The notes: generated by a model from the sequence alone, not told the origin. Positions 7,116 to 52,819 are shown, counted from the first letter of the stretch. The stretch: DNA of 64,000 bases from Gammaproteobacteria bacterium (GCA_029862125.1 JAOTXY010000009.1:2597-66596), one strand, 5' to 3'. Numbers and translations: made by a program.

Positions 7116-7233
7116 TCTATTGTTTCGATCATGCCGCTAAAATGGACGCAGCATTATACATTGACTGCATTTTGGGACCATTAAAATACTACAGTTTACA
7201 GTCATTTAGCACACCTTTCTAAGAGATTCTTTA

Positions 7234-7768: not shown

Positions 7769-10028
7769 ACTTACCAGCGCGCAGGAAGCCGCCTAGACCG
7801 CGCTCATCCAGTTTGCCAGCGTACATTTCACGAATCAGGAATGCATCCGGGAGGGCAAGCGCCTGCTGCAGAAGTTCGGTCAATTCAGCATGACTAAAGG
7901 ACATAATGACTTTTTTCGCACGTAGCAGGCTACCGACACTCATCGACAGACTATCGATCCCCATACCCAGTAAAGCCATTACCCCGAGTGGATCGCCCGC
8001 CAGTTCCCCACAAACGCTTACCGGGGTATCGCTGGCTTCTGCACCCTGGACTATCTGGCACATGGCCTTCAACACCGCCGGGTGCAGCGACGAGTAAAGC
8101 TCGGCTACATTTTCATTGTTTCGATCTACCGCAAGCAGGTACTGGGTTAAATCGTTAGTTCCGATTGATACAAAATCGACAAGCGCGCAGATATCTTCAA
8201 TCTGGTAAACAGCCGAGGGCACCTCTATCATTGCACCGATCTTGGGTAGCCATATTTTTTCGCCCACCTCTTCCTCGATTTCAGCGCGCACCCGGTTGAT
8301 CAAAACCAGCGACTCTTCCAGCTCACCTTTACCGCTAATCATCGGCAGCAAGATCTCGAGATTATTGATACCGACGTTGGCCCTGATCATCGCACGCACC
8401 TGGGTCACAAAAATCTCCGGGTGATCCAGTGTTATCCGGACACCGCGCCAACCCAGGAACGGATTGGCTTCGGAAATCGGAAAATAGCTGAGCGGCTTGT
8501 CTCCACCAACATCGAGCGTGCGCAGCACCACCGGCATCCCTTGGAAAGTTTCAAGCACGTTATGGTAAATGAGGTACTGTTCTTCCTCACTCGGGAAACG
8601 ATCACGAATCTGAAACGGGATCTCGGTGCGATACAATCCCACCCCTTCGGCACCACTGCGTAACGACGGCGTGTGATCAGACATCAGTCCCGAATTAACC
8701 ATTAACGAGACCTGGTGCTGATCGGTCGTTACCGCGGGCTGATTTTTTATGACGAGCAAATCCTGCTCGATCGCGGCTTCTTCTTTCAGGTACTGTTTGT
8801 ACTCGGCAAGAATCGACTTATTCGGGTTGACATAGGCTGATCCACTATAACCATCCACGACCAGGTTAACCCCGTCGAGCTTCTTTACCGGAAGGTTGGG
8901 TACCCCCATGACTGCCGGAATGCCCAGTGCATGCGCCAGTATCGCGACATGTGAGGAACTACTGCCATGCGTCGACACGATGCCACTCAGGCAATCCAGG
9001 GGCACATCGGCCAGATCCGTAGCCGTGACCTCATCACCAACGAGAATAGTTTGCTCGGGAAAATCGAGGTAAAGACTCTGCTCGAGCATTAATTTTCGTA
9101 ATACCCGTAATCCGAGATCACGTATGTCGTTCGCGCGCTCGGCCAGGTAGCGATCCTCCATCTGCGTAAATACGTAAGCATGCTGCTCAATCGTATCTCG
9201 CCAACTGGACGGCGCCCAGTTACCGGCGTTGATACCCTTCTCGGTGTCTTCAATCAGGGAACCACCGGTCAACATCTGTGCATAAGCCAGAAACAGCGCA
9301 CATTCTTCTTCGGGAAGCGAGGCACGCATTTTTTCTGCCTGCTCGGTCAACTCCGTGCAAACCTTGCCCACGGCAGCCCGAAAACTTTTCATTTCGCCGT
9401 CAATATCGTCAGTTTTCTTATCTGGGACCGACTCGAGATTCACGCCGCGATTAAGCACCATGGCAACACCAATGGCCATTCCCGGAGCGCCCGCCACCCC
9501 TTTGATCATGTGGGTGCTGGTTTCGGTACTAACACGACCCTTGCTTTCGGCACGTTCAATCGAGGTCGCAAGTTGCGCGGCGAGCGTTGTTAAAAACGCC
9601 TCTTCGTCTTCGTTGAAAGCATTTTTCGCACGCTGAACTGAAATAACACCCAGCACTTCACGGTGTGCGATTATCGGTACCCCAAGCATAATCGGAAAAT
9701 CAACTTCGCCGGAATCGGGAACCAGCAAAAATTTCTTGTGCTTCGGGGCATCGATCAGGTTCATCGACTCCGCCCTGGCGGCAATCGTGCCGATCAAGCC
9801 CTGGCCCAGCTTTCGTTCAACGTTGCCAATTATTGCCGGGTTTAATCCTTTGCTCGCCTGCAGGAGCATAACCCCGGGATCGCCCTCCTTCGCCAGGAAA
9901 ATAGAACAGGCTTGCGCGTTCAGGTCCTGCATCAGACTCTCGGTGATCAACACCAGCGCACTATCGATATCAGGGGCCCGGTTAACCTCCTGAACGATAC
10001 GTTGCAGCCTGTGAATCATCGATGCCAA
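7767..10028 (-). CDS. ptsP: phosphoenolpyruvate-protein phosphotransferase PtsP (GAF domain + enzyme I; nitrogen-PTS EI-Ntr)
   Basis: 753 aa. N-terminal GAF-like domain aligns with E. coli PtsP; C-terminal EI domains carry the phosphohistidine region. TTG start is preceded by GGGGGAAG 6 bp upstream. Confidence 0.9.
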   Translation of the reverse strand: MASMIHRLQRIVQEVNRAPDIDSALVLITESLMQDLNAQACSIFLAKEGDPGVMLLQASKGLNPAIIGNVERKLGQGLIGTIAARAESMNLIDAPKHKKFLLVPDSGEVDFPIMLGVPIIAHREVLGVISVQRAKNAFNEDEEAFLTTLAAQLATSIERAESKGRVSTETSTHMIKGVAGAPGMAIGVAMVLNRGVNLESVPDKKTDDIDGEMKSFRAAVGKVCTELTEQAEKMRASLPEEECALFLAYAQMLTGGSLIEDTEKGINAGNWAPSSWRDTIEQHAYVFTQMEDRYLAERANDIRDLGLRVLRKLMLEQSLYLDFPEQTILVGDEVTATDLADVPLDCLSGIVSTHGSSSSHVAILAHALGIPAVMGVPNLPVKKLDGVNLVVDGYSGSAYVNPNKSILAEYKQYLKEEAAIEQDLLVIKNQPAVTTDQHQVSLMVNSGLMSDHTPSLRSGAEGVGLYRTEIPFQIRDRFPSEEEQYLIYHNVLETFQGMPVVLRTLDVGGDKPLSYFPISEANPFLGWRGVRITLDHPEIFVTQVRAMIRANVGINNLEILLPMISGKGELEESLVLINRVRAEIEEEVGEKIWLPKIGAMIEVPSAVYQIEDICALVDFVSIGTNDLTQYLLAVDRNNENVAELYSSLHPAVLKAMCQIVQGAEASDTPVSVCGELAGDPLGVMALLGMGIDSLSMSVGSLLRAKKVIMSFSHAELTELLQQALALPDAFLIREMYAGKLDERGLGGFLRAGK

Positions 10029-10052
10029 TGTTTACTTCCCCCGAAGAATAAT

Positions 10053-10544
10053 TTAATCGCTAGCCGGTGCGGCTGTTGTCGGCAACCTGGGCTCCAATTG
10101 TGCCAGTGCGCACTGGTACACGCGGCGCTTGAAAAAGACGACGTTTTCAACCGGGTACCAGTAATCAACCCATTCCCAGTGATCGAACTCCGGCTTTGCG
10201 GATGCACTCAAATCGAAACTGTGCTCACCGGAGTCCAGTTGCAACAGGTACCATAGCTGTTTCTGACCGATACAGCGCGGCTCGGAGCGACGCATCAGCC
10301 GTCTGGGCAGCTTGTAGCGTAACCAGCTATCCGTGGCAGCCAGCAACGAAACATGACCAGACTCGAGCCCGGTTTCCTCCCAGAGTTCGCGATACATGGC
10401 ATCCCTGGGATTTTCATCAGCGGCGATTCCACCTTGAGGAAATTGCCACGCATCCTGCCCGATACGCCGCGCCCACATTACCTGCCCGGCACTGTTGCAT
10501 AGTATTATTCCGACATTTGCGCGGTAGCCATCTTTATCGATCAT
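10053..10544 (-). CDS. rppH: RNA pyrophosphohydrolase RppH (NudH)
   Basis: Starts [17 protein letters not shown]..., matching the E. coli RppH N-terminus, with Nudix box RELWEETG. Tracked ORF extends 14 codons upstream; MIDKDGY is chosen by homology. Confidence 0.9.
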
Positions 10545-10636
10545 TTCGCTGGTCGCTGTAAATCGTTTAGAATCTTGGCCGCCCATTCTGACATAGACTT
10601 TTGGAACCCATCAAGCTGAGACGCTGGAAACAAGCC

Positions 10637-11290
10637 ATGACACTCGCGATTTTCGATCTTGACCATACCCTGCTTACCGGCGATAGCGACTATCTCTGGG
10701 GTGAATACATGGTTGAAAATAACATTGTTGACGAGCAAAAATTCCGCGCTCGCAACAAGGTTTTCTACCAGGAATATCAGCGTGGAACGCTCGATAACGA
10801 GCGTTACCTGAAATTCGCGCTCGAACCCCTGACACATTTCACTATTGAAGAACTGTATACCTGGCGGGCGGACTATGTGGAAAAATGGATTAAACCGCTA
10901 ATCGCTCCCGGTGCCGCGAAATTACTCGACAGTCATCGCGCCAGCAACCACGAACTGCTCATTATCAGTGCAACCCACCTGTTTATTACCGAACCGATTG
11001 CGCAATTGCTCGAGGTGCCGACCGCACTGGCTACAGAGCCCGAAATCATCGATAACCGTTACACCGGTCGTTATCTCGGCACTCCGACTTACCAGGAAGG
11101 TAAGGTTACCGTGCTAACAGAATGGCTCGGCGACAGCGATCATAGTCTCAATGGCAGTTATTTTTACAGCGATTCGATCAACGATATTTCATTACTCGAA
11201 TTGGTCGATAACCCGAAAGCGGTCAACCCGGATGATGAATTGAAAGTCATCGCCGAAGACCGCAACTGGGAAATCATCGACCTGCTCTGA
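10637..11290 (+). CDS. HAD-IB family hydrolase (phosphoserine-phosphatase-like)
   Basis: MTLAIFDLDHTLL (DxD motif I), later SATHLFI and C-terminal YSDSINDISLL motif IV. Conserved ptsP/rppH neighbour in pseudomonads. Confidence 0.7.
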   Translation: MTLAIFDLDHTLLTGDSDYLWGEYMVENNIVDEQKFRARNKVFYQEYQRGTLDNERYLKFALEPLTHFTIEELYTWRADYVEKWIKPLIAPGAAKLLDSHRASNHELLIISATHLFITEPIAQLLEVPTALATEPEIIDNRYTGRYLGTPTYQEGKVTVLTEWLGDSDHSLNGSYFYSDSINDISLLELVDNPKAVNPDDELKVIAEDRNWEIIDLL

Positions 11291-11342
11291 TGTCGGGGAG
11301 ATGTCCTGCTACAAGGACATCGATGAAATAGCCTGAAACAAG

Positions 11343-11909
11343 CTAGGCCTTGGGCAGCGTAACCCCTTTCTGTCCCTGGTATTTGCCACCCCGATCCTTA
11401 TAGGAAGTTTCGCAGACTTCATCGGATTCGTAGAACAGCATTTGCGCGATGCCTTCGTTAGCGTAAATCTTTGCCGGTAGCGGGGTTGTATTTGAAAATT
11501 CGAGCGTCACATGCCCCTCCCATTCGGGCTCCAGCGGAGTAACATTGACAATAATACCGCAACGGGCATAAGTGGATTTACCAAGGCAGATCGTCAGTAC
11601 GCTGCGAGGTATGCGGAAGTATTCCACGGTGCGCGCCAGCGCAAATGAATTCGGCGGGATAATGCAAACGTCGGATTGAACATCAACGAAACTTTCGTCA
11701 GCGAAATTTTTTGGATCAACAATCGCGGAGTTAATGTTGGTAAAAATCTTGAATTCGTCGGCGCAACGAACATCGTAGCCGTAACTCGAGGTGCCATAAG
11801 AAATGATACGGCCGTTTTCTGATTCCCGGACCTGTCCGGATTCGAAGGGCTCGATCATACCTTCTGCCGCCGCCATTCGACGAATCCATCGGTCCGATTT
11901 AATGCTCAC
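11343..11909 (-). CDS. dcd: dCTP deaminase
   Basis: 188 aa with [14 protein letters not shown]-terminus and conserved Dcd core; length typical. Confidence 0.9.
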
Positions 11910-20432: not shown

Positions 20433-21521
20433 TCAGTTATTCTGGATTACGATATTGGGGAAGGCGGCCGAGTGATCGCGCGCCTTGGTGGCGAGCTTGG
20501 CCGCGGTCTTGCGCGCTACTTCGCGGTATATTGCAGCAATCGGACTATCCGCCATCGCGGCCACGGTGGGATTACCGCTATCGGACTGTTCCCGAATGTG
20601 AATGTCGAGCGGCAGCGAGCCGAGCAAATCGACACCGTGTTCAGCTGACATGCGCGCACCACCGCCTTCACCGAAAATAGGTTCGCTGTGCCCACACTGG
20701 CTACAGATATGAATGCTCATGTTCTCGATGACGCCAAGCACTGGAACTTCGACCTTTTCGAACATTTTCAGCCCCTTGCGCGCGTCCAGCAGAGCAATGT
20801 CCTGCGGGGTCGTAACGATGACCGCGCCACTGACCGGTATCTTCTGCGCCAGCGTTAACTGGATGTCGCCAGTGCCAGGAGGTAAATCGATTATCAGGTA
20901 ATCGACATCAATCCAACGGGTGTCATTGAGTAATTGCTCGAGTGCCTGGGTGACCATCGGCCCGCGCCAGATCATTGGCGTATCTTCCTCCACCAGGTAA
21001 CCGATCGACATCGACTGGATGCCGTGACCGACCATTGGCTCGAGACTCTTACCATCGGACGACTCGGGCTGGCCCTTACAACCGAGCATGCGCGGAATAC
21101 TGGGCCCATAGATATCGGCGTCAAGAATACCAACCGTCGCACCTTCAGCCTGCAACGCAAGGGCGAGATTAACCGCGGTCGTCGACTTGCCCACGCCACC
21201 TTTACCGGAGGCGACCGCGATGACATTCTTGATCCCCGTCAGGGGTTTCAAATTCTGCTGCACGGCATGCGACTTGACCTGGCTCGAAACTTCTACCTCG
21301 ACCGACCCAATGCCGTCGAGGTCACTCAACGCCGCCTCGATTTCCTGTTTCAGCGAAGCGAAATAACCCGCCGCCGGGTAGCCCAGCTGAATCTGGATCT
21401 TGCAGTTGTCTCCATCCGCTTCGATCGACTTGACGGCCTTGCTCGAGACCAGGTCGGTTTCCATGTTGGGGTCTATGACCTGACCCAGCTTCGTTTCAAT
21501 CTGCGATTTTTCGATTGCCAT
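20433..21521 (-). CDS. apbC: iron-sulfur cluster carrier ATPase ApbC/Mrp
   Basis: 362 aa. Walker A VASGKGGVGKSTTAVNLALAL, CxxC pair CSQCGH, N-terminal DUF59-like domain. Confidence 0.9.
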   Translation of the reverse strand: MAIEKSQIETKLGQVIDPNMETDLVSSKAVKSIEADGDNCKIQIQLGYPAAGYFASLKQEIEAALSDLDGIGSVEVEVSSQVKSHAVQQNLKPLTGIKNVIAVASGKGGVGKSTTAVNLALALQAEGATVGILDADIYGPSIPRMLGCKGQPESSDGKSLEPMVGHGIQSMSIGYLVEEDTPMIWRGPMVTQALEQLLNDTRWIDVDYLIIDLPPGTGDIQLTLAQKIPVSGAVIVTTPQDIALLDARKGLKMFEKVEVPVLGVIENMSIHICSQCGHSEPIFGEGGGARMSAEHGVDLLGSLPLDIHIREQSDSGNPTVAAMADSPIAAIYREVARKTAAKLATKARDHSAAFPNIVIQNN

Positions 21522-21671: not shown

Positions 21672-23705
21672 ATGAGTTCCAAATCCCGCCAGATCGTGGT
21701 GACCAGCGCGCTGCCTTATGCCAATGGTCCGATCCATATCGGCCACATGCTCGAGTACGTGCAGACCGACATCTGGGCACGTTTTCAGAGGTTGCGCGGT
21801 CACGAATGCATCTACGTGTGCGCAGATGATGCCCATGGCACGCCAATCATGCTGCGCGCGCAGGCAGAAGGGATTACCCCGGAAGCATTAATTGAACGCA
21901 TGCACAAGGAACACCTGCAGGACTTTACCGATTTTGGCGTCGCTTTCGATAATTACTACAGTACCCATTCCGACGAGAATCGCTTTTTCGCCGAGTACAT
22001 CTATACCCGGCTGAAACAAGCCGGGCATATCCGAACGCGCGTCATCTCACAGGCTTATGACCCGACAGCGGAAATGTTCCTGCCGGATCGATTTATCAAG
22101 GGTGAGTGCCCTAACTGCGGTGCCGGCGATCAGTATGGTGACAATTGTGAAAACTGCGGCGCTACCTATGATCCCACCGAGCTCAAAAATCCAGTATCGG
22201 TGGTCAGCGGGGAAACCCCGATCGAAAAGGATTCGGAACAGTATTTCTTCAAACTGGAAGACTTTGAAGACATGCTCAAAGCCTGGTTCGCCGCCGGGCA
22301 CGTGCAAACCGAAATCGCCAACAAGATGAACGAATGGCTCGATGAAGGTCTCAAGGACTGGGACATTTCGCGCAACGCGCCCTACTGGGGTTTCGAAATC
22401 CCGGACGCGCCGGGTAAATATTTTTACGTCTGGCTGGACGCACCGATTGGTTACATGGCCAGTTTCAAACACTGGTGCAAGGCGACCGGGCATGACTTCG
22501 ATGAATACTGGAATGCCGATAGCAAGCACGAGCTTTACCATTTCATTGGCAAAGATATCGCTCGCTTCCATACCATGTTCTGGCCAGCGATGCTGCATGG
22601 CGCCGGTTTCCGCAAGCCGACTGCGGTTTATTGCCATGGATTCCTGACCGTGGATGGACAAAAAATGTCAAAGTCGCGCGGCACCTTTATCATGGCTCGC
22701 ACTTATCTTGAACATTTGAATCCCGAATACCTGCGCTATTACTTTGCCGCCAAGCTCGGTCCCGGGATCGACGACATCGACCTGAATCTCGAGGATTTCA
22801 CAACCCGCGTCAATTCTGACCTGGTAGGCAAACTGGTGAACATTGCCAGTCGTTGCGCCGGATTTATTAACAAAAGCTTTGATGGCAAGCTTGCCGCCAA
22901 ACTCTCCAGCGAAGATTTGAGCCAAAAAATTCTCGCAGCCGCAGAACCGATTGCCGATTATTATGAGAACCGCGAATTCGGTAAGGCCATGCGCGACATC
23001 ATGGCACTGGCGGATAAAGTCAACCAGTACATAGACGAAAAACAGCCCTGGGTAGCCATCAAGGACCCGGCGCGTGCGTCCGAGGTACAGGATGTCTGCA
23101 GCATCGGGTTGAATTGCTTTCGTCAGTTGATCATTTTGCTGAAACCCGTTTTGCCGAAGCTGGCGGCGCAGTCAGAGGAATTCCTCATTGCCGGAAATCT
23201 CGGCTGGTCCGACCTTGGCGACAACCTGCTGGATCACGGTATTAATCGATTCAAACCCCTGATGACCCGAATCGAGCCGATATTTATCGAACGCATGATT
23301 GAGGCGACAAAAGAAGACCTCGCCACGGAGCAGAAAATGCAGCAAACCTCGAGCGACCCATCGATCGAAGCCATCGCAACCGAGATCGGTTATGACGACT
23401 TCGCCAAACTGGATTTCCGTATTGCAAAAATCGTCGCCGCCAAACGCGTCGAAAAATCCGACAAGCTGCTGCAGCTCACCCTCGATATCGGTAGCGAGAC
23501 CCGCAACGTGTTTGCCGGAATCAGCAACGCCTACCAACCCGAGGACCTGGAAGGCAAGCTCACGGTGATGGTTGCCAACCTGGCCCCGCGCAAGATGCGC
23601 TTTGGTATTTCCGAAGGCATGGTGCTGGCAGCCGGTTCCGGTGAAACCGAACTCTACATCCTGAGCCCGGACTCGGGCGCTAAACCGGGAATGCGAGTCA
23701 GCTAG
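21672..23705 (+). CDS. metG: methionine--tRNA ligase
   Basis: 677 aa. HIGH motif ([12 protein letters not shown]), KMSKS, zinc knuckle CPNCG...CENCG, C-terminal tRNA-binding (EMAP/Trbp111-like) domain. Confidence 0.95.
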
Positions 23706-24968
23706 TTGTTTTCACGTCTGATTGCAGCCAGCCTCTTGCTCGCGGGCATCGCCGCATCGCCTACGCATGCGATCGACTCCAAGCAAATCTACCAGCTCAA
23801 CCAGGAGCGCGTATTCCAGGTCCGCGTGCTCAATCGTGAAACCGGCAAGAAATCCAGTATCGGATCGGGTTTTATCGTCGGTGACGGTAGCCAGGTCGCG
23901 ACCAACTACCACGTTGTCGGCCAGGTCATCCTCGAACCCGAGCTGTTTTACATTTCTTACGTCGGCAAGGACGGACAGGAAGGCGAGTTAGAGTTGCTGG
24001 GTCTCGACGTTGCCCGTGACCTTGCCCTGCTCGGTGCCGACAAGCCCATTGGCGAAGCGATCAAGATGAGTCCGCTGCCGCCACGCGGAGCACCGATTTA
24101 CGCGATGGGGAATCCACTGGACCTGGGACTGACTATCGCGGTTGGCACCAATGGCGGAATTTTAAACCAGACCGATGATAGTCGTATCCTGTTCTCGGGG
24201 AGTCTGAACCCGGGCATGAGCGGCGGTCCCACCTTCAACGACCAGGGTGAAGTCATCGGCATCAACGTCGCCACCGCGCGTAATGACATCAGTTTTATTG
24301 TACCGTCAAAATTTTTAAATGACTTGATCGAGCAGTCGAATACCGATGCATTCAGCAGCGACCAAGATCTCAAGCTCGAAGTCGCGCGGCAGGTGCTGGC
24401 TTACGAAAACAGCTACATTGAGCAATTGCTGGAGAACGACTGGCCGAAACTCGACCTGCGCCAGTTCAATTTACCCGGCATCATCTCGCCAACCGTGCGT
24501 TGCTGGGACAATAGCGCCAAGCTCAGCACCATTGTGCGCTACAAACGTTACCAGATTCGTTGCGCCAACAAGAACCACGTCTATCTGGATGTAGACAACA
24601 AGTTCGTTGGCGAATTGACCTACGAGTATTTCTGGCTCGAATCGGAAGATCTCAACGCGATCCAGTTTTATAACCTCTATGAAAATCTGAACAAGGATCA
24701 AATCGACTCAAAAATCGATCGCGACATCGTCAGCAATTTCAATTGCCGCACCTGGTTTGTCGAGGTCTCCGCGCAGGAACTTAAAGGTAATCTATGTCGA
24801 CGAGAGTACGTCGAATACAAGGGCATGAGCGATGTTCTTTTTACAGCGGCCCTCACGGGCCATAAAAACCAGGGATTTTTCATTACACTGATTATGACGG
24901 GCGTTGATTACTCGTCAACCCTGCCGCTGATTCAAAAATTCCTGGAGCAATCCGAATGGAAGCCCTGA
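23706..24968 (+). CDS. secreted trypsin-like serine peptidase (S1 family)
   Basis: 420 aa. Signal peptide LIAASLLLAGIAASPTHA, catalytic His region GSGFIVGDGSQVATNYHVV, Ser region GMSGGPTFNDQGEVIGIN. TTG start immediately after, and in frame with, the metG stop codon. Confidence 0.7.
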   Translation: MFSRLIAASLLLAGIAASPTHAIDSKQIYQLNQERVFQVRVLNRETGKKSSIGSGFIVGDGSQVATNYHVVGQVILEPELFYISYVGKDGQEGELELLGLDVARDLALLGADKPIGEAIKMSPLPPRGAPIYAMGNPLDLGLTIAVGTNGGILNQTDDSRILFSGSLNPGMSGGPTFNDQGEVIGINVATARNDISFIVPSKFLNDLIEQSNTDAFSSDQDLKLEVARQVLAYENSYIEQLLENDWPKLDLRQFNLPGIISPTVRCWDNSAKLSTIVRYKRYQIRCANKNHVYLDVDNKFVGELTYEYFWLESEDLNAIQFYNLYENLNKDQIDSKIDRDIVSNFNCRTWFVEVSAQELKGNLCRREYVEYKGMSDVLFTAALTGHKNQGFFITLIMTGVDYSSTLPLIQKFLEQSEWKP

Positions 24969-25912
24969 TACTCGAAATCAACACCCGGGGATTGCATCGA
25001 TATGAACAAATCGATGCCGAGGTAACCACGATCGGGCGTGCCCTGGATAACGATATCATTCTTTCTGATCCAACCGTTGCACCACATCACCTTAAGATAA
25101 TACGCTACGGTGAGAATTCGCTTGAACTGGTCAACCTGGCCGAGGTAAACCCGACTCGCATCGACAACAGGCGGGTGGATTCACTGGTCACTGAGAAGTT
25201 ACCGTTAAACCTCGAAATCGGTCGTATCCAGGCGCAACTGTTACCGCGCAATTATGCAGTTTCCGCGACCCGTTCCCTGGCCGGCAAGGGTAAAAGCAGC
25301 CACCTGTTCGGGCATGCTTACTGGACGGTCATACTTGTCCTGATTTGCCTGTTTGTTGGCGGTCTCGAATTTTTTCTCAACTCCTACACCAGTTTCAAAT
25401 GGAGCGAATTATTCAAGCACGTGTTACGAGAAAGCGTATTGACGATTGGTGTTTTCGTGCTCGCGTTATCGATACTCGAACGCCTGCTGGTCAATCGATG
25501 GGAAATCAGGCAACTGGTTACCTCGGTATGCCTGGTTTACCTGCTTTATTACTTCGCATCGATTTTTACCTACGAACTGAGCTACCTGTTCACTGCGAAC
25601 TGGCCGGCGACGCTGTTTCGCTTTGGCTGGCACCTGCTGATCATCCCGGGTGCGGTCGTACTCTACCTGGTCCATATATCGCATTTAAAACGAAACCGCA
25701 GCATTTTACTGGCCATCCTGATTGCAAGTCCCATCGCGGTACCCTCGATCCTGCAAAGCCCGGAGTTGAGGGCCATGCTGGACGATTTCAGTTCATCTGC
25801 GAGATACCAGAACAGCCTCAGTTCGCTAAACTGGCATCTGAAAAAAACAGTAACCATTGAAAGCTTCATCGAGCAGGCCGAAGATCTTGAAGCCGGCGAG
25901 TTCGCCGACTGA
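24956..25912 (+). CDS. FHA-domain protein with C-terminal multi-pass membrane region
   Basis: N-terminal FHA signature (TIGRALDNDIILSDPTVAPHHLKI) followed by about 6 hydrophobic helices. Overlaps the protease gene by 13 bp. Confidence 0.65.
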   Translation: MEALILEINTRGLHRYEQIDAEVTTIGRALDNDIILSDPTVAPHHLKIIRYGENSLELVNLAEVNPTRIDNRRVDSLVTEKLPLNLEIGRIQAQLLPRNYAVSATRSLAGKGKSSHLFGHAYWTVILVLICLFVGGLEFFLNSYTSFKWSELFKHVLRESVLTIGVFVLALSILERLLVNRWEIRQLVTSVCLVYLLYYFASIFTYELSYLFTANWPATLFRFGWHLLIIPGAVVLYLVHISHLKRNRSILLAILIASPIAVPSILQSPELRAMLDDFSSSARYQNSLSSLNWHLKKTVTIESFIEQAEDLEAGEFAD

Positions 25913-25989
25913 GCAAGCATTAGTCAATTTAATAAAGACCTCGGGTAATATCGGTATTTTTCACAAGTTCCAGGCCTTATAATTCGACG

Positions 25990-26571
25990 ATGTCAGAATA
26001 CCTGTTACTTTTAATTGGCACGGTGTTTGTCAACAACATCGTGCTGGTCAAATTCCTCGGGCTTTGTCCGTTTATGGGTGTCTCACGCAAAGTCGAGACC
26101 GCCATCGGTATGAGCGCGGCAACAACTTTCGTACTGACCCTGTCGGCAATACTGAGTTACCTGATCAATAACTGGATCCTGTCACCGCTGGATCTCGAGT
26201 ACCTGCGCACTATCGCCTTCATTATCGCAATTGCCGCCGTCGTCAATTTCACCGAAATGGTGGTGCACAAAACCAGCCCGCTGCTTTACAACGTGCTTGG
26301 TATTTTTTTACCGCTGATAACCACCAACTGCGCGGTGCTGGGCGTGGCGCTGATTAATGTCCAGGAGCAAAACAGTTTTCTCGAATCAGTAGTCTATGGT
26401 TTCGGAGCCGCGCTCGGCTTCTCATTGGTATTAATCCTGTTCGCAGCCATGCGTGAGCGCATCAATGTCGCCGATGTGCCAGCCCCGTTCAGGGGCTCAG
26501 CGATCGGCCTTGTTACCGCGGGACTGATGTCGCTGGCCTTCATGGGGCTCGGCGGCCTGGTCAAGGTCTAA
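25990..26571 (+). CDS. rnfA: electron transport complex subunit RnfA/RsxA
   Basis: 193 aa polytopic. [32 protein letters not shown] is the conserved RnfA N-terminus. Confidence 0.9.
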
Positions 26572-26574
26572 ACC

Positions 26575-27135
26575 GTGTTTGTCGCAATTTTAACCATCAG
26601 CCTGATGGCTGGAGTATTTGGCCTGGTACTCGGCTACGCGGCGATACGTTTCAAGGTTGAAGGCAATCCGATCGTCGATCAAATCGACGCACTGCTGCCG
26701 CAGACTCAATGCGGACAATGCACCTACGCGGGTTGCCGACCCTATGCCGAGGCCATCGCAAACGGAGAAGCACCCATCAATCAATGCCCCCCGGGTGGAC
26801 AGGCGACAATCGTTGCACTTTCCAACCTGCTCGATACCGAGGTGCTCGACCTCAACGCAGAGCTTGGTGAGCATCTTGAAATTCCTCTGCTGGCGGTGAT
26901 TGACGAGCAAATATGTATTGGTTGCACGCTCTGCATCCAGGCCTGCCCGGTCGACGCCATCCTCGGCGCAGCCAAGCAAATGCACACGGTGATTGCCGAC
27001 GAGTGCACGGGCTGCAAACTCTGCCTGCCCCCCTGTCCGGTCGATTGCATCGACATGGTTCCCACCGAGCAATCCATCGACGACTGGAAATGGCCGGCAC
27101 CGTTAGACCCGCTGGAACTAGTACAGGATGCTTAA
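26575..27135 (+). CDS. rnfB: electron transport complex subunit RnfB/RsxB (Fe-S)
   Basis: [30 protein letters not shown] plus two 4Fe-4S ferredoxin CxxCxxCxxxCP motifs. Confidence 0.9.
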
Positions 27136-28675
27136 GCTACATCATTTTCACGGTGGCCTGCGGCTCGACGGACATAAAGCCAAGTCGCTGCAACGAGGAT
27201 TACTACAGGCAACTTTACCCGAACGCCTGTTCCTGCCGTTAAGGCAACACATCGGTGATCACAATAAGCCCCGGGTCGAGATCGGTGAGCGGGTGCTGAA
27301 GGGCCAGGTAATCGCCTCGGATTCCGCGTTGATTTGCGCCGCAGTACACGCGCCGACCTCGGGTACCATCAGAGCAATAGAAAACTACCCGGTGGCACAC
27401 CCGTCGGGGAAAATCGATACCTGTATCGTCATCGACGTCGATGGCGATGACCAGGGCGTCGAGCCAAACCCGGCAGACCTCGAGAGCCTGGCGCCCATTG
27501 AATTGATCGAGCTGATTTGTCGCGCCGGCATCGTCGGACTCGGCGGTGCGGTTTTTCCGACCTCGCCAAAGTTGTCGCGCGGCAAGGTGCAGGGTATAGA
27601 CACCTTGATCATCAACGGGGTCGAGTGCGAACCCTATATTACCTGCGACGATATCCTGATGCGCTTCAACGCGGCCGAAGTGATTCGTGGCAGCGGCTAC
27701 CTGCAGCGAATCCTGGCACCACGAACCACGTATATCGCAATTGAAGATAACAAGCCGGAAGCTATCGCGGCCATGGCGAAGGCGCTGGCCGAGCATCCTC
27801 TGCCAGACACTGAAATTATTCCGATTCCGACGATTTATCCCTCCGGCGGTGAAAAACAACTGGTCCAGATTCTGACCGGGAAAGAGGTGCCACATGGTCA
27901 GCTGGCGTTTGATATTGGTATTTTCTGCCAAAATGTCGGTACTTGCGCTGCCATCACGCGTGCACTCGAAATGGACGAACCCCTGATCTCCCGCGTGGTC
28001 ACAATTACCGGCGACAATATTGCGCACCCCGGGAACTGGGAGGCTCGACTGGGCACACCGATCAACCACCTGATTGAACTCGCCGGAGGTTATCAGCATG
28101 AAGCCAGTGGGCACCTGGTCATGGGTGGATCGATGATGGGATTTGCGCTTTCCGGTAGCGATGTTCCGATTGTTAAGGCAAGTAACTGCATCATGGTGAT
28201 GCGCGAGGAAACCATTCCGAAATCACCGGGCTACCACGATGAATGTATCCGTTGCAGCAAGTGTGCCGAGGTATGCCCGGCACAATTGTTACCCCAGCAA
28301 CTCTATTGGCATGCGCGTGCCAAAGCCTACGAGCGCACCCGGGAATTTCACCTGTTTGACTGTATTGAATGCGGTTGCTGTTCTACGGTTTGCCCGAGCA
28401 GAATTCCGCTGGTGCAATACTATCGTGCCGCCAAAAGTGAAATTCGCGCGACGCGAAAGGCACAATTCAAGTCCGATCGCGCACGCCTTAGATTCGAGTT
28501 TCGTGAAAAGCGACTGCTGTTGAAAAAACAGCAAGATGAAGAGCGGCGACGGCTGAAACGCGAGGCCCTGCAAAAGAAAAAAGCCGGGGCCGGCAATGGA
28601 AAACCCCAGGCAGACCCGGTCCAGGCCGCACTGGACAGGGTCAAGGCGCGCAAGAAACTGGCGCAGGAAGACTAG
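27128..28675 (+). CDS. rnfC: electron transport complex subunit RnfC/RsxC
   Basis: 515 aa. NADH-binding GGAVFPT, ferredoxin cysteines [12 protein letters not shown] / [12 protein letters not shown], basic repeat tail. Confidence 0.9.
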
Positions 28676-28677
28676 TT

Positions 28678-29700
28678 TTGGCCAACGTCATCGTCTCGTC
28701 GCCCTACGTTGCCCAGGGCAGTACGCTCAAACGCCTGATGATCCAGGTCATCGTTGCCCTGCTGCCCGGCACGATCGCATATGCCTGGTATTTCGGGCCC
28801 GGTGTCATCATTAATATTTGCCTCGCGGTGCTGTTAGCACTGGCGTTCGAGGCAGGCATCCTGAAATTACGCGCCAAACCGGTAATGCCACACCTGACCG
28901 ATTTCAGCGCGGTAGTGGCGGCCTGGTTGTTCGCGTTGTGTCTGCCGATGCACACTCCCTGGTGGCTGGTACTGGTCGGTATCGGTTTCACCATGGTAGC
29001 CGGAAAACATCTGTACGGTGGACTCGGGTTCAACCCTTTCAACCCTGCCATGGTGGGTTACGTGGTCCTGTTAATTTCGTTTCCACGGGAAATGACAACC
29101 TGGTATTTACCGAGCTCGGTGAGCGGTGAAACCCTGAGTCTAAAGGAGGCACTGGCTTACACTTTCGGCGGTGCCGATATTCAGCAGTGGGATGCGCTGA
29201 GTTCGGCAACCCCGCTGGACCAGGTCAAAACCGCTGTTGCACAGGGCATCACCGTCGGCGAGATTCGACTGTCACCGGTATTCGGGGAATATGGCGGCAA
29301 GGGCTGGGAGTGGATAGCCTTCTGGTGGTTCATCGGTGGGCTGTGGCTGCTGGCGTCGCGGACAATCCGATGGCATATTCCGGTTGCATTGCTAAGTGCC
29401 GTACTCGTAATGTCCCTGCTGTTCTACCTGGTCAACCCTGAAACCTACAATTCACCCCTGTTTCACCTGCTCTCGGGCGCAGTCATAATCGGCGCCTTTT
29501 TCATAGCTACCGACCCGGTTACCGCCGCCACCACCGATAGCGGGCGGATTTACTATGGCCTGCTGATCGGCTGTCTGATTTATATCATCCGTGTCTGGGG
29601 TGGTTATCCCGACGGCGTCGCATTCGCCGTGTTGCTAGCGAACATGTGTGTACCACTGATCGACTATTACACGCAGCCACGGGTATATGGCGAAAAATGA
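28678..29700 (+). CDS. rnfD: electron transport complex subunit RnfD/RsxD
   Basis: 340 aa polytopic with the conserved flavin-attachment region. Alternative (TTG) start. Confidence 0.9.
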   Translation: MANVIVSSPYVAQGSTLKRLMIQVIVALLPGTIAYAWYFGPGVIINICLAVLLALAFEAGILKLRAKPVMPHLTDFSAVVAAWLFALCLPMHTPWWLVLVGIGFTMVAGKHLYGGLGFNPFNPAMVGYVVLLISFPREMTTWYLPSSVSGETLSLKEALAYTFGGADIQQWDALSSATPLDQVKTAVAQGITVGEIRLSPVFGEYGGKGWEWIAFWWFIGGLWLLASRTIRWHIPVALLSAVLVMSLLFYLVNPETYNSPLFHLLSGAVIIGAFFIATDPVTAATTDSGRIYYGLLIGCLIYIIRVWGGYPDGVAFAVLLANMCVPLIDYYTQPRVYGEK

Positions 29701-30320
29701 TTACGATCAGCCGGCGGCAGATTCTTATTTCGGGGATATTTCTATGGCTATTCGCAGTCGCCGGCACAACCCTGGTCGCGTTTACGGAGTATAGCTCCCG
29801 GGAAGCAATTATCGAAAACGAGCGCCAGGTATTGTTGCGTAACCTTTATGCGCTGCTACCCAGGGATAAGCTCGATAACGATATTGCGGAGGATATACTG
29901 GAACTGCCTGCCTCTCCCCTGCTTGGCACTGATGCGGCTTCGATCGTCTACCGCGCGCGCCTTGACGGAGATCCTGCCGCGGCAATATTCAATAGCATCG
30001 CGCCCAATGGTTACAACGGCAAGATACATTTACTGGTCGGGGTCTACAGCAACGGCAAGCTGGCAGGGGTACGCGTGGTCAAACATGCTGAAACCCCGGG
30101 ACTGGGTGACGCCGTCGAGATCAGGAAGTCACCATGGATCAAAAGTTTCGACGGTAAATCGCTCACTAATCCAGACCCTTCCGGCTGGCGCGTAAAACGC
30201 GACGGCGGTGAGTTCGACCAGTTTACCGGTGCGACTATCACACCGCGGGCGGTGGTTACGGCAGTGCGCAACACGCTGCTGTACTATCAACAAAACGCTG
30301 ATATGATTTTTAAACAATGA
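29697..30320 (+). CDS. rnfG: electron transport complex subunit RnfG/RsxG
   Basis: ATG at 29697 overlaps the rnfD stop (ATGA). Single N-terminal TM helix and FMN-binding domain pattern ([31 protein letters not shown]). Confidence 0.85.
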
Positions 30321-30991
30321 CGACTTCACGCGAAATTACCCGTGACGGGCTTTGGGGCAACAATGTTGCACTGGTGCAGTTGCTCGGACTTTGTCCGTTG
30401 CTCGCGGTAACCAGTACGGTTGTCAACGGCATAGGTCTCGGCATTGCCACGCTGATCACGCTGGTACTTTCAAACACGATCGTTTCATTGATCCGCGGTT
30501 TCGTGCGCAAGGAAGTCAGGCTACCGGTATTTGTGCTGATCATCGCGTCCGTAGTGACGATAATAGAACTGTCGATGCAAGCCCTGTTTTATGACCTTTA
30601 CCTGGTGCTCGGCATTTTCATTCCGCTTATTGTCACCAATTGTGCAATTATCGGTCGCGCCGAGGGTTTCGCGTCCCGCAACCCGGTCGGACCTGCCGCG
30701 CTCGATGGACTGATGATGGGACTGGGGTTCCTGGTAGTGCTGGCATTGCTTGGGGCGTTGCGCGAAGTTATCGGCTTCGGCACGCTGTTCGCCAACGCTG
30801 AACTGATGTTCGGTGACGGTGCCCAGACGCTGCAAATCCAGTTCAACGAGGACTACCCTGGATTCCTGCTCGCGATTTTACCGCCAGGCGCTTTCTTCGG
30901 CCTGGCGGCCCTGATTGTCGTCAAGAACTGGCTGGATCTGCGGCCACGGGAAAAACAGGAGATTATAGAAGCGGCGCCCGAGACGGTATGA
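30317..30991 (+). CDS. rnfE: electron transport complex subunit RnfE/RsxE
   Basis: 224 aa. [20 protein letters not shown] conserved N-terminus, RnfA paralogue. Confidence 0.9.
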
Positions 30992-31623
30992 ACCCGCAAA
31001 AGCGATATGAAATCTTTAGCCGCCTGCGCGAACATATCCAGGCGCCGCGCTCGGAACTTGAATACCGTTCTAATTTCGAACTATTAATTGCAGTGCTGCT
31101 TTCGGCACAGGCAACCGACATCAGCGTCAATAAGGCTACCACGCAACTGTACCCGGTGGCGAATACCCCGGAAAAAATGCTGGCGCTCGGTGAAAACGGT
31201 ATCAAGCAATACATCAAGACCATCGGGTTATTCAATACCAAGGCCAAAAACATCATCGCCACCTGCCGGATCCTGATCGAGCAATATGAATCGCAGGTGC
31301 CTGAAGACCGGGTGGCGTTGGAAAAATTACCCGGGGTTGGGCGTAAAACTGCCAACGTGGTGTTAAACGTCGCTTTTGGTCATCCCACGATCGCGGTCGA
31401 TACGCATATTTTCCGGGTCTCCAATCGCACCGGTATCGCACCCGGCAAAGACGTGCTTGTGGTAGAAAAGAAACTGCTTAAATTTGTACCCGACCAGTTC
31501 AAACTCGACGCCCACCACTGGTTGATCCTGCATGGACGCTATACCTGCATTGCGCGCAAGCCGCGATGCGGCAGCTGCATAATCGAAGACCTATGCGAAT
31601 TCAAGCAAAAGAACATTGAGTAG
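30988..31623 (+). CDS. nth: endonuclease III
   Basis: 211 aa. HhH-GPD motif ([13 protein letters not shown]), 4Fe-4S cluster loop [17 protein letters not shown]. Follows rnfE as in E. coli. Confidence 0.9.
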
Positions 31624-48339: not shown

Positions 48340-49515
48340 ATGAGCCAGACTTCAGCCCCGAGTATCGCCCTGGACGCCATCCTGCAGCCGATCGAAAAGG
48401 CGAATGGATTGCCCAACCAGGCATACACCAGCAACGATTTCCTGGCGCAGGAACGTGACCATGTGCTCGGCAAAAGCTGGGCCGGGCTCTGGTTTGCCAG
48501 CGACCTGCCCAAGAAGGGTTATGTCAAGCCAGTTGAATTCATGGGCCTGCCACTGGTCATCCTGCGCAACAAGCAGGATGAGATCAAGGTATTCCACAAC
48601 GTCTGCAGCCACCGCGGCATGATCCTGGTACACGATGAAATGGAAGTTCAGGGTGCGTTGCGCTGCAAGTACCACTCCTGGTCATACAATCTCGATGGCG
48701 AGCTCAAGGGTACGCCGCATCTCGGCGGGATCGGGCAGCAAAAGTTCGACGGCTTCAATCATTGCGATCACGGGCTGAAACCGGTGCGCTCGACCGTATG
48801 GATGGATGTTGTTTTTATCAATCTCTCCGGAGACGCACCTGATTTCGCCGATTACATCAAACCGCTGACTGAAAAATGGAGCCCCTTTCTTGGCGGTACC
48901 GGCCTCGATCGATTAAGAACCGCGGCCAATGGCAAGGGCATGAAGATCGAGGTGAACTCGAACTGGAAGCTTGCAGTGGAAAATTACTGCGAAAGCTATC
49001 ACCTGCCCTGGATTCACCCCAGTTTGAACACTTACTCCCGGCTTGAAGATCATTATCACATCATGTATGGCGATGACTTCGGTGGGCAAGGCAGCAACGC
49101 CTACCGTCTATACGACCAGGCTGGCACCGCGTTACCGCGCTTCCCCGAGTGGCCCGAGGACAGGCTTGAACAGGCCGAATACGTCTCGTTCTACCCGAAC
49201 GTGTTACTCGGAATCCAGGCCGACCACGCTTTCGCAATGATAATCGAACCCAGGGCCTGTGACCGGTCCGTCGAACACCTGCGCCTGTTCTACGTCGGCG
49301 ACGAAGCGCTTTCCGATGAACATGCAGCAAGCCGCACCGCCACCCTCGAATCCTGGCGCGTGGTATTCAGCGAAGATATCGATGCGGTCGAAGGCATGCA
49401 GCGCGGACGGCAGTCACCGGGTTACGGCGGCGGGGTGTTTTCACCGGTGATGGACAATCCAACCCATCACTTTCACCAATGGGTTGCGCGCAAGTTACAG
49501 TCTGCCCGGGGCTAG
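48340..49515 (+). CDS. Rieske [2Fe-2S] non-haem-iron oxygenase alpha subunit (GbcA/CntA-like ring-hydroxylating oxygenase family)
   Basis: Rieske motif CSHRGMILV...CKYHSWSY and mononuclear-iron region (YHLPWIHP). Start moved to ATG 48340, preceded by GAGG. Confidence 0.8.
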   Translation: MSQTSAPSIALDAILQPIEKANGLPNQAYTSNDFLAQERDHVLGKSWAGLWFASDLPKKGYVKPVEFMGLPLVILRNKQDEIKVFHNVCSHRGMILVHDEMEVQGALRCKYHSWSYNLDGELKGTPHLGGIGQQKFDGFNHCDHGLKPVRSTVWMDVVFINLSGDAPDFADYIKPLTEKWSPFLGGTGLDRLRTAANGKGMKIEVNSNWKLAVENYCESYHLPWIHPSLNTYSRLEDHYHIMYGDDFGGQGSNAYRLYDQAGTALPRFPEWPEDRLEQAEYVSFYPNVLLGIQADHAFAMIIEPRACDRSVEHLRLFYVGDEALSDEHAASRTATLESWRVVFSEDIDAVEGMQRGRQSPGYGGGVFSPVMDNPTHHFHQWVARKLQSARG

Positions 49516-51497
49516 GAGCCCAGATCGCGAAATAAGGCACCACGCGCAATAGGCCAGATTCCCCGACTCAGCGCGCGGCCGGCTTCGAACAAGACGTAGC
49601 TTTGACCACCGTAGTGAGGCAGGGGTCGCAGCAGTGATTTCAGGTCATTGGTATTCGCAGCCGACACCACCACTACCGCCGCCCCGTTAGCGCGGCGCGT
49701 GGTCCAGACCTCGGCAGAATAGGCCACCTTCGGCAATGCGGATGGTCGCTTCAGTCCTAACAGCTTCAAATCTTCGTTCAACCGGTCGTGGGTGGTGATG
49801 AGCAACAGCGAGTTGCCCGGTTGTTGCGCTGCGGCCAGGTTATCAAACCGAGGCTGCGTATCCATTAACCTTGATGCCAGGTTTCGTGCAGCCGCGGTAA
49901 ATTCAGCATCGTTGGACGCGATCAGAGTGCGGGTCTCGGGATCCAGCGTCACGTCTCGCAGGATCGGCGGTGTCTCGTTTTGATGCAGGCGCCGAAACAC
50001 ATCGCTATCGGGGTCGGCCTGGAAATAGAGTGGTTTTGTCGGTGTAACAAACTCGACTAGAGTTAAGGTATCGTCGATGGTTATGTCATATTGCCGGGTA
50101 CCGTCGACCGTTGTCAGCGACACGGGTAGCTGGAAGCGATAGCCGGTAACCGGTTGTAGAATCTCGACCCGGGTACGGAAACCCGCCTCATCCTGGTTGA
50201 CACTATGCGCACCGAGACTCAGTCGAGGTGCCCCGGAACGCAACAGCCATTGCGCGAAGAACCAGTCGAGATCCTGCCCCGCTGCACGCTCGAAGGCGAC
50301 CTGTAAATCCCGCCAGCTGGCGGTGTCGTGTTTGTGCTTTTGCCAAAAGCCACGCAAGCCATCGTCAAACGCGGCCTGGCCTATTTCCCGTGTCAGCATG
50401 TGAAAAATAAAGGCAACCTTGTTATATCCAATCACCTGGGCCGCCTGGTGCTGCTTCGAGGTAAAGGCTGTTACCGGCTGATCACGCTCCGCGGGCAGGG
50501 CTGCATAATCGCGCAACCATTTTATACGCATGGACTGCGCCGCCTCCCCGCCCTGGTCAGCAGCGAGTGCGTAATCGGCGAGATAAGTGGTCAAACCTTC
50601 CGCCCAGTTGCCGCTGGCGTAATCGACCGATACCGCGTTCCCCCACCAGTTATGCAACACCTCGTGCGCCAGCGATCGCGTGCGCATGAATGGCAACGGA
50701 ATTACCTGGCGCCCGACATAGGTAAGATTTGGGAATCCCAAACCCACCGGTATCGGCGCCGAAATAACATGGAAGTCGGAATATGGATAGTCACCGATAC
50801 TTTGCTGGTAGCGCTGGATATAGCTATCGGCAGCCTCAAGGTAGGTTTCGGCCAGTGGGACGAGATCCTCGTGAAAATAGGTGCGTAAGCGCAGTCCGTT
50901 GCCAAGCCGTTCCGCCACCTGGTATGGCCCGACAAATAGTGACGGTGGTTCGCCCGGATTTAGCGTCTCAAAGGTCGATATGTAAACGTCTTCAGTTAGT
51001 TGCTCGCTAACCAGCTTTCCGGTCGCGACCGCACGCTGCCCGACCGGAACCGTTACCGTGAGACGGTAGCTTGTGCGACCACCCTCATCCCGGGGAATCC
51101 AGGCATCGTATCCCGGCAGGAAAAAACCATCGTCACCGCTGCTGCTGAGCAGAGCTGGCCAGGATTTCTGTTGAGAATCCCGTGCCGGCACTTCACCGCG
51201 CAGGGTAAATTGAAGCTCGTGCGTATTGCGATCCGGAAGTGCCAGCCAGTACTCCAGGCCTTGCACCAGTGGCCTCACTTCCTGTCCGTCGAGTAACAGG
51301 CTTTCAACACCGAGCCAGGCGGCAAGTTGAAACTGGTAGCGTTCACGTCCACTAACCCGCAGCCTGTCTTTAATCAGTATTTCAGCGGTATCGGTTTTCA
51401 GCACAACTTCGATCGAGTGCTCAACTGCCGGGCTCGAGGCCTGTGCCAACTGTTGAGCGCCCGCAAAACAAAACAATGCGGCGAGAATGCATCGCAT
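49512..51497 (-). CDS. secreted M1-family zinc metallopeptidase (aminopeptidase N-like)
   Basis: Signal peptide MRCILAALFCFAGAQQLAQA, HEXXH-(18)-E zinc motif HEVLHNWWGNAVSVDYASGNWAEGLTTY. Start chosen at MRCIL (51497). Confidence 0.8.
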   Translation of the reverse strand: MRCILAALFCFAGAQQLAQASSPAVEHSIEVVLKTDTAEILIKDRLRVSGRERYQFQLAAWLGVESLLLDGQEVRPLVQGLEYWLALPDRNTHELQFTLRGEVPARDSQQKSWPALLSSSGDDGFFLPGYDAWIPRDEGGRTSYRLTVTVPVGQRAVATGKLVSEQLTEDVYISTFETLNPGEPPSLFVGPYQVAERLGNGLRLRTYFHEDLVPLAETYLEAADSYIQRYQQSIGDYPYSDFHVISAPIPVGLGFPNLTYVGRQVIPLPFMRTRSLAHEVLHNWWGNAVSVDYASGNWAEGLTTYLADYALAADQGGEAAQSMRIKWLRDYAALPAERDQPVTAFTSKQHQAAQVIGYNKVAFIFHMLTREIGQAAFDDGLRGFWQKHKHDTASWRDLQVAFERAAGQDLDWFFAQWLLRSGAPRLSLGAHSVNQDEAGFRTRVEILQPVTGYRFQLPVSLTTVDGTRQYDITIDDTLTLVEFVTPTKPLYFQADPDSDVFRRLHQNETPPILRDVTLDPETRTLIASNDAEFTAAARNLASRLMDTQPRFDNLAAAQQPGNSLLLITTHDRLNEDLKLLGLKRPSALPKVAYSAEVWTTRRANGAAVVVVSAANTNDLKSLLRPLPHYGGQSYVLFEAGRALSRGIWPIARGALFRDLGS

Positions 51498-51501
51498 ATT
51501 C

Positions 51502-52719: not shown

Positions 52720-52819
52720 CGAGTTAATACTCCTTGTGTAGCGGCCAGATACGGTGTAGTTGATACGGTTAAACATCAAACCGGGATCAGTGGCCTATCC
52801 TTCGACAAGCAGGCCAGTC

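Follow-up and report, generated by a model that had tools for sequence, protein, structure and literature searches.

A PDZ-less S1C protease and an FHA-domain membrane protein encoded by a strictly conserved gene pair abutting metG in a gammaproteobacterial lineage

The window analyzed here is a 64,000-nt stretch of DNA from a Gammaproteobacteria bacterium (GCA_029862125.1 JAOTXY010000009.1:2597-66596), and all coordinates are positions in it. Directly downstream of metG, two genes on the plus strand (23706-25912) encode an exported serine protease of the S1C (HtrA-like) class and a multi-pass membrane protein with an FHA domain. We propose, with a probability of roughly 0.55, that these genes form a self-contained two-protein envelope module in which the protease would be tethered to the membrane by its partner. 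Its domains are of known kinds; the strictly conserved two-gene arrangement is undescribed. An earlier note, made from the sequence of the window, had pointed out the protease, the FHA-membrane gene and their apparent coupling to metG. Comparison across related loci made this coupling firmer and corrected some of the properties assigned to the two proteins.

The strongest support for a module is the co-occurrence of the two genes. We examined 80 genome loci found through the protease and 80 metagenome loci found through the FHA-membrane protein (a narrower alignment than the set of 57 family sequences used below). In the genome loci the FHA-membrane gene follows the protease wherever the contig continues. 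In the metagenome loci the protease is directly upstream in 79 of 80, and the last contig has only 100 nt upstream. In total, the pairing is found in 159/160 loci, always with the protease first. Such strict co-occurrence, seen in searches from either gene, shows on comparative genomic grounds that the two genes are one functional module, as the earlier note had supposed. One apparent loss of the FHA partner (locus L026, CP070646.1) was rejected, as a run of N at 7129-7230 cuts the protease and unrelated sequence comes after it; this is an assembly join in a metagenome-assembled genome (MAG) labelled ‘complete chromosome’.

The two genes are also tightly joined. The protease open reading frame (ORF; 23706-24968, plus strand, 420 codons, with a TTG start at 23706 and a TGA stop at 24966-24968) overlaps the FHA-membrane gene (24956-25912, plus strand, 318 codons, with its ATG at 24956) by 13 nt (24956-24968), confirming the overlap described earlier. 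An identical 13-nt overlap is present in 127 of the 152 loci in which it can be measured, including 92/92 loci of this clade and 32/38 of a Chromatiaceae-like clade with 46-50% protease identity. Because it recurs to this extent, the overlap is not a product of chance. In the Usitatibacter clade a spacer of 11-44 nt separates the two genes. Read in its two frames, the overlap encodes ...EW(K/R)P* and ME.L, and it is unusually rigid for such a feature.

The second junction lies upstream. metG (21672-23705, plus strand) encodes a methionine-tRNA ligase (MetRS) of 677 residues (NF001100, 976 bits; PF09334, E = 9.5e-160), which ends in PGMRVS followed by a TAG stop at 23703-23705. Both the C-terminus and the stop are kept in relatives in the junction alignment. 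The protease TTG follows this stop immediately and in frame, with 0 intergenic bases, as the coordinates given earlier had it, and the TAG/TTG junction (23703-23708, plus strand) is the proposed site of termination and re-initiation. We tabulated the junction over 160 related loci and took as close relatives the 51 loci in which the protease is at least 74% identical. The TTG start is kept in 47/51 of them, within -4 to +3 nt of the metG stop: the distance is 0 in 25 loci, +1 in 12, +2 in 6, +3 in 2 and -4 in 2, the last being a TTGA overlap. Since it recurs in this way, the TAG-adjacent TTG is not there by chance. The two genes share a frame in just 27/51 close relatives, so the in-frame arrangement in the window is incidental. 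A restart codon that is held beside the metG stop while spacing and frame drift is the pattern expected under selection for translational coupling rather than for a fused product, as read from these alignments. In a sister sub-clade (65-70% protease identity) the start is usually ATG (22/28 loci) and lies 10-80 nt past metG. Readthrough of the metG stop would yield a MetRS-protease fusion, which the earlier note mentioned and considered non-physiological. The comparison agrees: because the frame varies with these gaps, it is not under selection, and a functional readthrough product was rejected. In E. coli, a T after the stop codon favours efficient termination, and the metG stop has T next.

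The position of the start is well constrained. Upstream of the TTG no in-frame start is possible, since the codon before it is the stop of metG. Downstream, initiation at the nearest in-frame alternative, a TTG at codon 11, would shorten the presequence to 12 residues, none of them basic; the first in-frame ATG is M121, past two of the three triad residues. Most database homologues of the protease were called independently at 420 residues. The TTG start therefore stands, with no downstream ATG or GTG with a promoter of its own to replace it. A match to the anti-Shine-Dalgarno sequence ahead of the TTG is weak (-4.3 kcal/mol), 14 nt away and badly spaced; the FHA-membrane gene has a better Shine-Dalgarno sequence (SD), CTGGAG, 7 nt before its ATG. 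There is neither a terminator-like site nor a convincing promoter at the metG-protease junction, and promoter-like and terminator counts in the scan were not above those of shuffled controls. The short distance (-4 to +3 nt), its retention in relatives and the weak SD are each consistent with termination-reinitiation. From these features we infer that protease synthesis depends mainly on ribosomes that end metG and re-initiate at UUG. The junction and overlap data thus strengthen both proposed couplings, that of the protease to metG and that of the FHA-membrane gene to the protease.

Termination-reinitiation coupling at overlapping or abutting stop and start codons is exemplified by the trpB-trpA type UGAUG junctions. 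The metG-protease junction resembles them in that stop and start lie within a few nucleotides and the downstream gene has no good SD. It differs in its restart codon, UUG rather than AUG, and in that the upstream gene, for an aminoacyl-tRNA synthetase, is functionally unrelated to the downstream genes. By comparative sequence standards the junction is a well-documented natural case of apparent UUG restart coupling to an aminoacyl-tRNA synthetase gene. Its conservation makes it a clean natural example of stop-start coupling at UUG, which could be useful for studies of re-initiation and for gene-start annotation.

Searches with Pfam and NCBIfam profile hidden Markov models (HMMs) support the identities of metG, the protease ORF and the FHA ORF. 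The protease matches Trypsin_2 (PF13365) with E = 5.5e-21 over residues 53-186, and its chymotrypsin-fold S1C domain (23808-24341) contains an intact triad of H69, D105 and S172 (in GMSGGP) that is invariant in the alignments. A Sec-type signal peptide is recognized by pattern and alignment at residues 1-22 (23706-23771). Its sequence, MFSRLIAASLLLAGIAASPTHA followed by IDS, has a basic residue, a hydrophobic core and an A-x-A-like site, is conserved in the alignment and contains no lipobox Cys. The earlier description of a secreted trypsin-like S1 protease is thereby supported. The closest solved relatives in a PDB search are DegP, DegQ, DegS, HtrA1 and HhoA, which align with the protease core only (E ~1e-10 to 1e-11). 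HtrA families also give the best NCBIfam matches. With these HtrA proteins it shares the periplasmic chymotrypsin-fold core, the His-Asp-Ser triad and a GNxGxSGGP-type motif. Unlike them, it has no PDZ domain (no Pfam match at E up to 1), carries instead a PsbP/Mog1-like domain with four invariant Cys, and has a gene that is always paired with that of the FHA membrane protein. It also scores well under the HtrA equivalog cut-offs (TIGR02037, TIGR02038, NF008189 and others), with a best score of 70.9 vs 416.2 bits, and reaches 39.9 bits against a cut-off of 422.95 for the DegS family. A canonical DegP/DegQ-type HtrA protease with Trypsin_2 and two PDZ domains is encoded elsewhere in the window (57560-58933, minus strand) and shares 37% identity with the studied protease in the catalytic core. 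Because this enzyme is already present, the studied protease is an additional, specialized PDZ-less paralogue.

The C-terminal half of the protease (residues 213-420; 24342-24965) has no match to any Pfam family. An AlphaFold2 (AF2) model built from an alignment that covers both the gamma and the beta clade (23% identity) gave a predicted local distance difference test score (pLDDT) of 81.7 and a predicted template modelling score (pTM) of 0.80 for this part. In the model it forms an alpha-beta sandwich that joins the PsbP/Mog1/DcrB-like superfamily by fold. Identity to PsbP, Mog1, DcrB and DUF1795 (Eag) proteins, including the periplasmic type VI secretion system (T6SS) immunity proteins Tsi3 and TplEi, is 1-10%. 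What sets the domain apart from those proteins is its fusion to a protease and a set of conserved cysteines that point to stabilization by disulfides. C266, C286, C347 and C364 are invariant across the gamma and beta clades and lie on neighbouring strands in the model, which suggests two disulfide bonds and fits a periplasmic location. Taken together, the sequence features show an exported, catalytically intact-looking PDZ-less S1C protease, whose C-terminal half is a predicted PsbP/Mog1-type binding domain.

The partner begins with an FHA domain, placed in the cytoplasm (residues 1-100; 24956-25255). The signature is present: PF00498 matches residues 24-81 with E = 1.6e-9 and 38.5 bits against a cut-off of 20.7. 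The domain is followed by five transmembrane (TM) helices at residues 121-142, 149-178, 184-212, 216-241 and 246-266 (25316-25753), with the N-terminus inside and the C-terminus outside. Hydropathy and the AF2 model agree on five, replacing the six-helix module of the earlier note. The last 52 residues (267-318; 25754-25912) form a predicted periplasmic acidic tail with a net charge of -6, a candidate docking or cleavage segment in which F278, Y284, L288 and F304 are conserved family-wide. Among 57 diverse family members, the net charge is about +1.8 for loops 2 and 4, zero to negative for loops 1 and 3 and -3.9 on average for the tail, a distribution in support of placing the FHA domain in the cytoplasm and the tail in the periplasm. 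The family is sizable. An exhaustive search of 1.84 billion cluster representatives gave 835 matches with E <1e-3. Among the top 150 matches listed, many are full-length proteins of 310-340 residues with 20-46% identity, and at 50% clustering dozens of distinct full-length representatives remain. The homologues whose source was checked are from uncultured bacteria, a Thiothrix MAG being one of them.

Ligand recognition by the FHA domain was assessed by comparing the equivalents of R70, S85 and N107 in Rad53 FHA1, together with the structural H88. Of the corresponding positions in the 57 family representatives, R28 is invariant and H45 and N65 are nearly so; G27 is also invariant or nearly so. 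The position of the phosphate-contacting Ser (S85) varies, with Ser in 29, Cys in 11, Asp in 10 and Ala in 7. The family profile is much closer to canonical phosphothreonine-binding FHA domains (OdhI, GarA, EmbR; E = 2e-13) than to YscD (E = 2.7e-3). The YscD cytoplasmic domain PF16697 is matched barely above its cut-off (35.3 vs 33.2 bits), and SctD (TIGR02500) is far below its own (11.9 vs 86 bits). The membrane protein also differs in architecture from FipA/FhaB (Rv0019c), Rv1747 and SctD (YscD/PrgH), having five TM helices and a short tail in place of a single TM helix with periplasmic ring-building domains, and no ABC transporter. Further differences from this group are the phosphate-contacting Ser, which is substituted in this clade, and the lack of type III secretion system (T3SS) or kinase genes nearby. 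The protein thus has a true FHA fold and is neither of the SctD/YscD nor of the FipA type.

Combining these data, we propose the following mechanism for the module. Ribosomes that finish MetRS would re-initiate at the TTG, giving a low constitutive synthesis of the protease that is tied to metG translation. Ribosomes that finish the protease would in turn re-initiate on the FHA-membrane gene, favouring matched amounts of both proteins. The exported protease would dock through its PsbP-like domain on the periplasmic tail or loops of the membrane protein. The protease would thereby be held at the membrane in a complex of two chains, comparable to membrane-anchored proteases such as DegS or MarP. 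Through its FHA domain the complex would be linked to a cytoplasmic protein, and in this clade such a contact would probably not be classical phosphothreonine binding.

Several points weigh against this proposal. An internal promoter may exist inside the 3' part of metG. The signal peptide cleavage site, placed after residue 22, and the disulfides of the C-terminal domain are predictions from sequence patterns. In the AF2 model of the membrane protein the TM and tail part is only moderately confident (pLDDT 68 overall and 45-55 in the tail, over residues 281-296); a conserved tail of low confidence could be one that becomes ordered on binding a partner. All members of this clade have Ala in place of the phosphate-contacting Ser, which makes classical phosphothreonine binding doubtful here; of the phosphothreonine recognition assumed earlier, R28, H45 and N65 are in place and the contacting Ser is not. 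The neighbours of the pair in four clades include no recurrent gene for a kinase, phosphatase, sigma factor or site-2 protease and no recognizable substrate, and a simple motif scan of the ORFs within the 64-kb window found no Hanks-kinase motif. The search for a Ser/Thr kinase or phosphatase partner, which the earlier note had recommended, was therefore negative both beside the pair and, for Hanks-type kinases, in the window.

The pair could alternatively act in regulated proteolysis from outside to inside. On an envelope signal the protease would cut the tail of its partner, much as DegS cuts RseA, and the destabilized membrane protein would release cargo bound to its FHA domain. The resemblance to DegS-RseA is one of architecture only: in both, a periplasmic S1C protease goes with an inner-membrane protein that has a binding domain in the cytoplasm and a segment in the periplasm, the latter being in our pair a conserved and probably unstructured tail. 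The strict co-inheritance and translational coupling of the two genes would suit this arrangement, and the PsbP-like domain could serve as the sensor instead of a PDZ domain. The differences from DegS-RseA are substantial. The partner has an FHA domain rather than an anti-sigma domain and spans the membrane five times, which is unusual for a substrate of intramembrane cleavage, and the protease is itself unanchored and has no PDZ sensor. No sigma factor or RseP-type gene lies nearby, and neither the neighbours in the four clades nor the scanned ORFs of the window include an anti-sigma substrate, an extracytoplasmic function (ECF) sigma factor or a site-2 protease. Matched co-translation, moreover, suits a stable complex at least equally well. 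Overall, we consider regulated cleavage of the partner unlikely.

MarP (Rv3671c) of Mycobacterium offers a second comparison. In this protein a polytopic membrane domain is fused to a periplasmic S1 protease in one polypeptide. Like the pair, MarP joins a polytopic membrane part and a trypsin-fold protease outside the cytoplasm into one working unit, and the studied protease has a weak match to NF033740 (40.7 bits against a cut-off of 250, E = 1.5e-10), too low for membership. Unlike the pair, MarP is a single chain rather than the product of two genes and has neither an FHA nor a PsbP-like domain. MarP and DegS are functional analogies for the proposed complex, not relatives.

A different possibility is housekeeping quality control, in which the membrane protein would be only an anchor or chaperone for a PDZ-less HtrA paralogue and the FHA domain a phosphorylation-independent scaffold, as in YscD/PrgH of the T3SS. 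Vertical inheritance at fixed core-gene positions and the probable constitutive expression through metG are in keeping with such a role. The marginal YscD match, the loss of the phosphate-contacting Ser in this clade, its variability across the family and the lack of a kinase gene among the neighbours or in the window scan point in the same direction. However, G27, R28, H45 and N65 are near-invariant in a family that has diverged to ~20% identity, which argues for a conserved ligand. The family profile is far closer to OdhI, GarA and EmbR than to YscD, and a regular DegP/Q is already present in the window. We hold a purely housekeeping role to be only a tentative alternative. The earlier note had preferred a signalling or regulated-proteolysis module to a housekeeping one; this preference stays conjectural, as the fixed positions among core genes fit a constitutive envelope function equally well.

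The proposed complex could also be part of a trans-envelope signalling device. FHA binding, phospho-dependent in most lineages, would be relayed through the five-TM partner to the docked periplasmic protease, or in the reverse direction. This would be a form of regulated proteolysis that needs no sigma factor, and in this lineage its synthesis would also be tied to MetRS through the UUG restart. We offer this as a speculation of low probability.

The chromosomal setting bears on whether the pair serves its neighbours. A gene resembling apbC/mrp (20433-21521, minus strand) diverges from metG and adjoins it in every complete locus of the clade. Downstream on the plus strand are rnfA (start 25990), rnfB, rnfC and further rnf genes, followed by nth (25990-31623). 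rnfA, rnfB and rnfC were traced by tblastn matches across the clade loci and named from their translations; rnfD/G/E, nth and the apbC/mrp-like gene were named from ORF translations, with no HMM. All complete loci in which the FHA protein is at least 44% identical have apbC-metG upstream and rnfABC downstream. They belong to uncultured marine-sediment Gammaproteobacteria and to the Olavius algarvensis Gamma 3 endosymbiont. Between the pair and rnfA, a 77-nt spacer (25913-25989) shows neither a predicted terminator nor a consensus promoter. A single long operon may thus extend from metG through the pair and the rnf genes to nth. An Rfam scan of the 64-kb window gave no match at gathering score, and hence no tRNA, rRNA, riboswitch or junction leader was detected.

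The constant metG-pair-rnfABC order and the unterminated spacer might suggest that the pair serves MetRS or Rnf specifically, for instance in the maturation or turnover of Rnf subunits, with its position reflecting that function. Other lineages argue otherwise. The pair occurs in Gamma- and Betaproteobacteria and in one Desulfobulbales MAG, and within 6 kb of it there is neither metG nor rnf in the Chromatiaceae-like, Usitatibacter and Desulfobulbales clades. In the Chromatiaceae-like clade, RdgC, a ThiF-family gene and a rhodanese/P-loop protein lie upstream of it and two GTPase-DUF697 genes downstream; in Usitatibacter (Betaproteobacteria) its neighbours are TctC, an SBP-GNAT protein and RtcB; and in the Desulfobulbales MAG they are a GAF-MshEN-type II secretion system (T2SS)-type ATPase and aconitase B. 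In the sister sub-clade, too, the protease usually starts at an ATG of its own, at some distance from metG. Because synteny differs in this way, a role dedicated to MetRS or Rnf is largely refuted, and we regard it as very improbable. The pair does ride on metG in this lineage, as noted earlier, but without a functional tie, since other lineages keep it among unrelated genes. It behaves as a vertically inherited chromosomal module, which by comparison of these loci probably became established between metG and rnfA in a single lineage and later closed up against the stop codon of metG.

We give almost no credence to an artefact or coincidence, in which the TTG would be merely the first start after a stop (as an ORF listing always takes it), the true start elsewhere and the ORFs unrelated, or the pair a mobile or defence element (for which there is a weak PADLOC hit of the trypsin domain to RT-Protease_XI): the TTG persists in close relatives while spacing and frame vary, only the start at 23706 preserves the conserved signal peptide while M121 would drop two triad residues, and the pairing is nearly universal in the loci examined. 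A mobile origin is further opposed by the base composition over the pair, which shows no anomaly, and by the lack of a match of either protein to any plasmid. The PADLOC hit covers just the generic protease core and the FHA protein has no hit, and with stable core-gene positions and no plasmid matches a defence system was rejected.

Our literature searches found no description of a membrane pairing of an FHA protein and an S1C protease. One candidate source, PMC7159879, was set aside because it concerns unrelated vWA-MoxR conflict systems. The pair thus defines an uncharacterized, strictly paired two-gene family in which a PsbP/Mog1-type domain takes the place of the HtrA PDZ domain. The proposed module would connect a cytoplasmic FHA domain with periplasmic proteolysis, a link for which we found no precedent in the literature. 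We consider its importance moderate: all domains are of known kinds and the function is proposed from comparison, while the genomic facts are firm. In Usitatibacter the pair is seen in MAGs, and this genus has cultured species.

Some further observations were made in passing. In the Chromatiaceae-like loci (L051-L064, ~8180-11630) the pair is followed by an ORF of 173 residues without a Pfam match and then by the tandem GTPase (MMR_HSR1)-DUF697 genes. In L052, for example, these lie at 8182-8700, 8750-10240 and 10113-11522, and the arrangement is found in all complete loci of that clade. Four loci labelled Haliangium (L025), Urechidicola (L035), Acidimicrobiia (L039) and Polaribacter (L047) have gammaproteobacterial metG-pair synteny with 65-75% protease identity; L025 and L035 include apbC and rnf, L047 only rnf and L039 neither. 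These are most likely mis-binned contigs. Elsewhere in the window, on the minus strand (49512-52779), an M1-family peptidase gene (49512-51551) has its start within a gene (51502-52779) whose product is a ChaN-like haem-binding protein with a PDZ domain at its C-terminus. The two look like another candidate coupled envelope pair.

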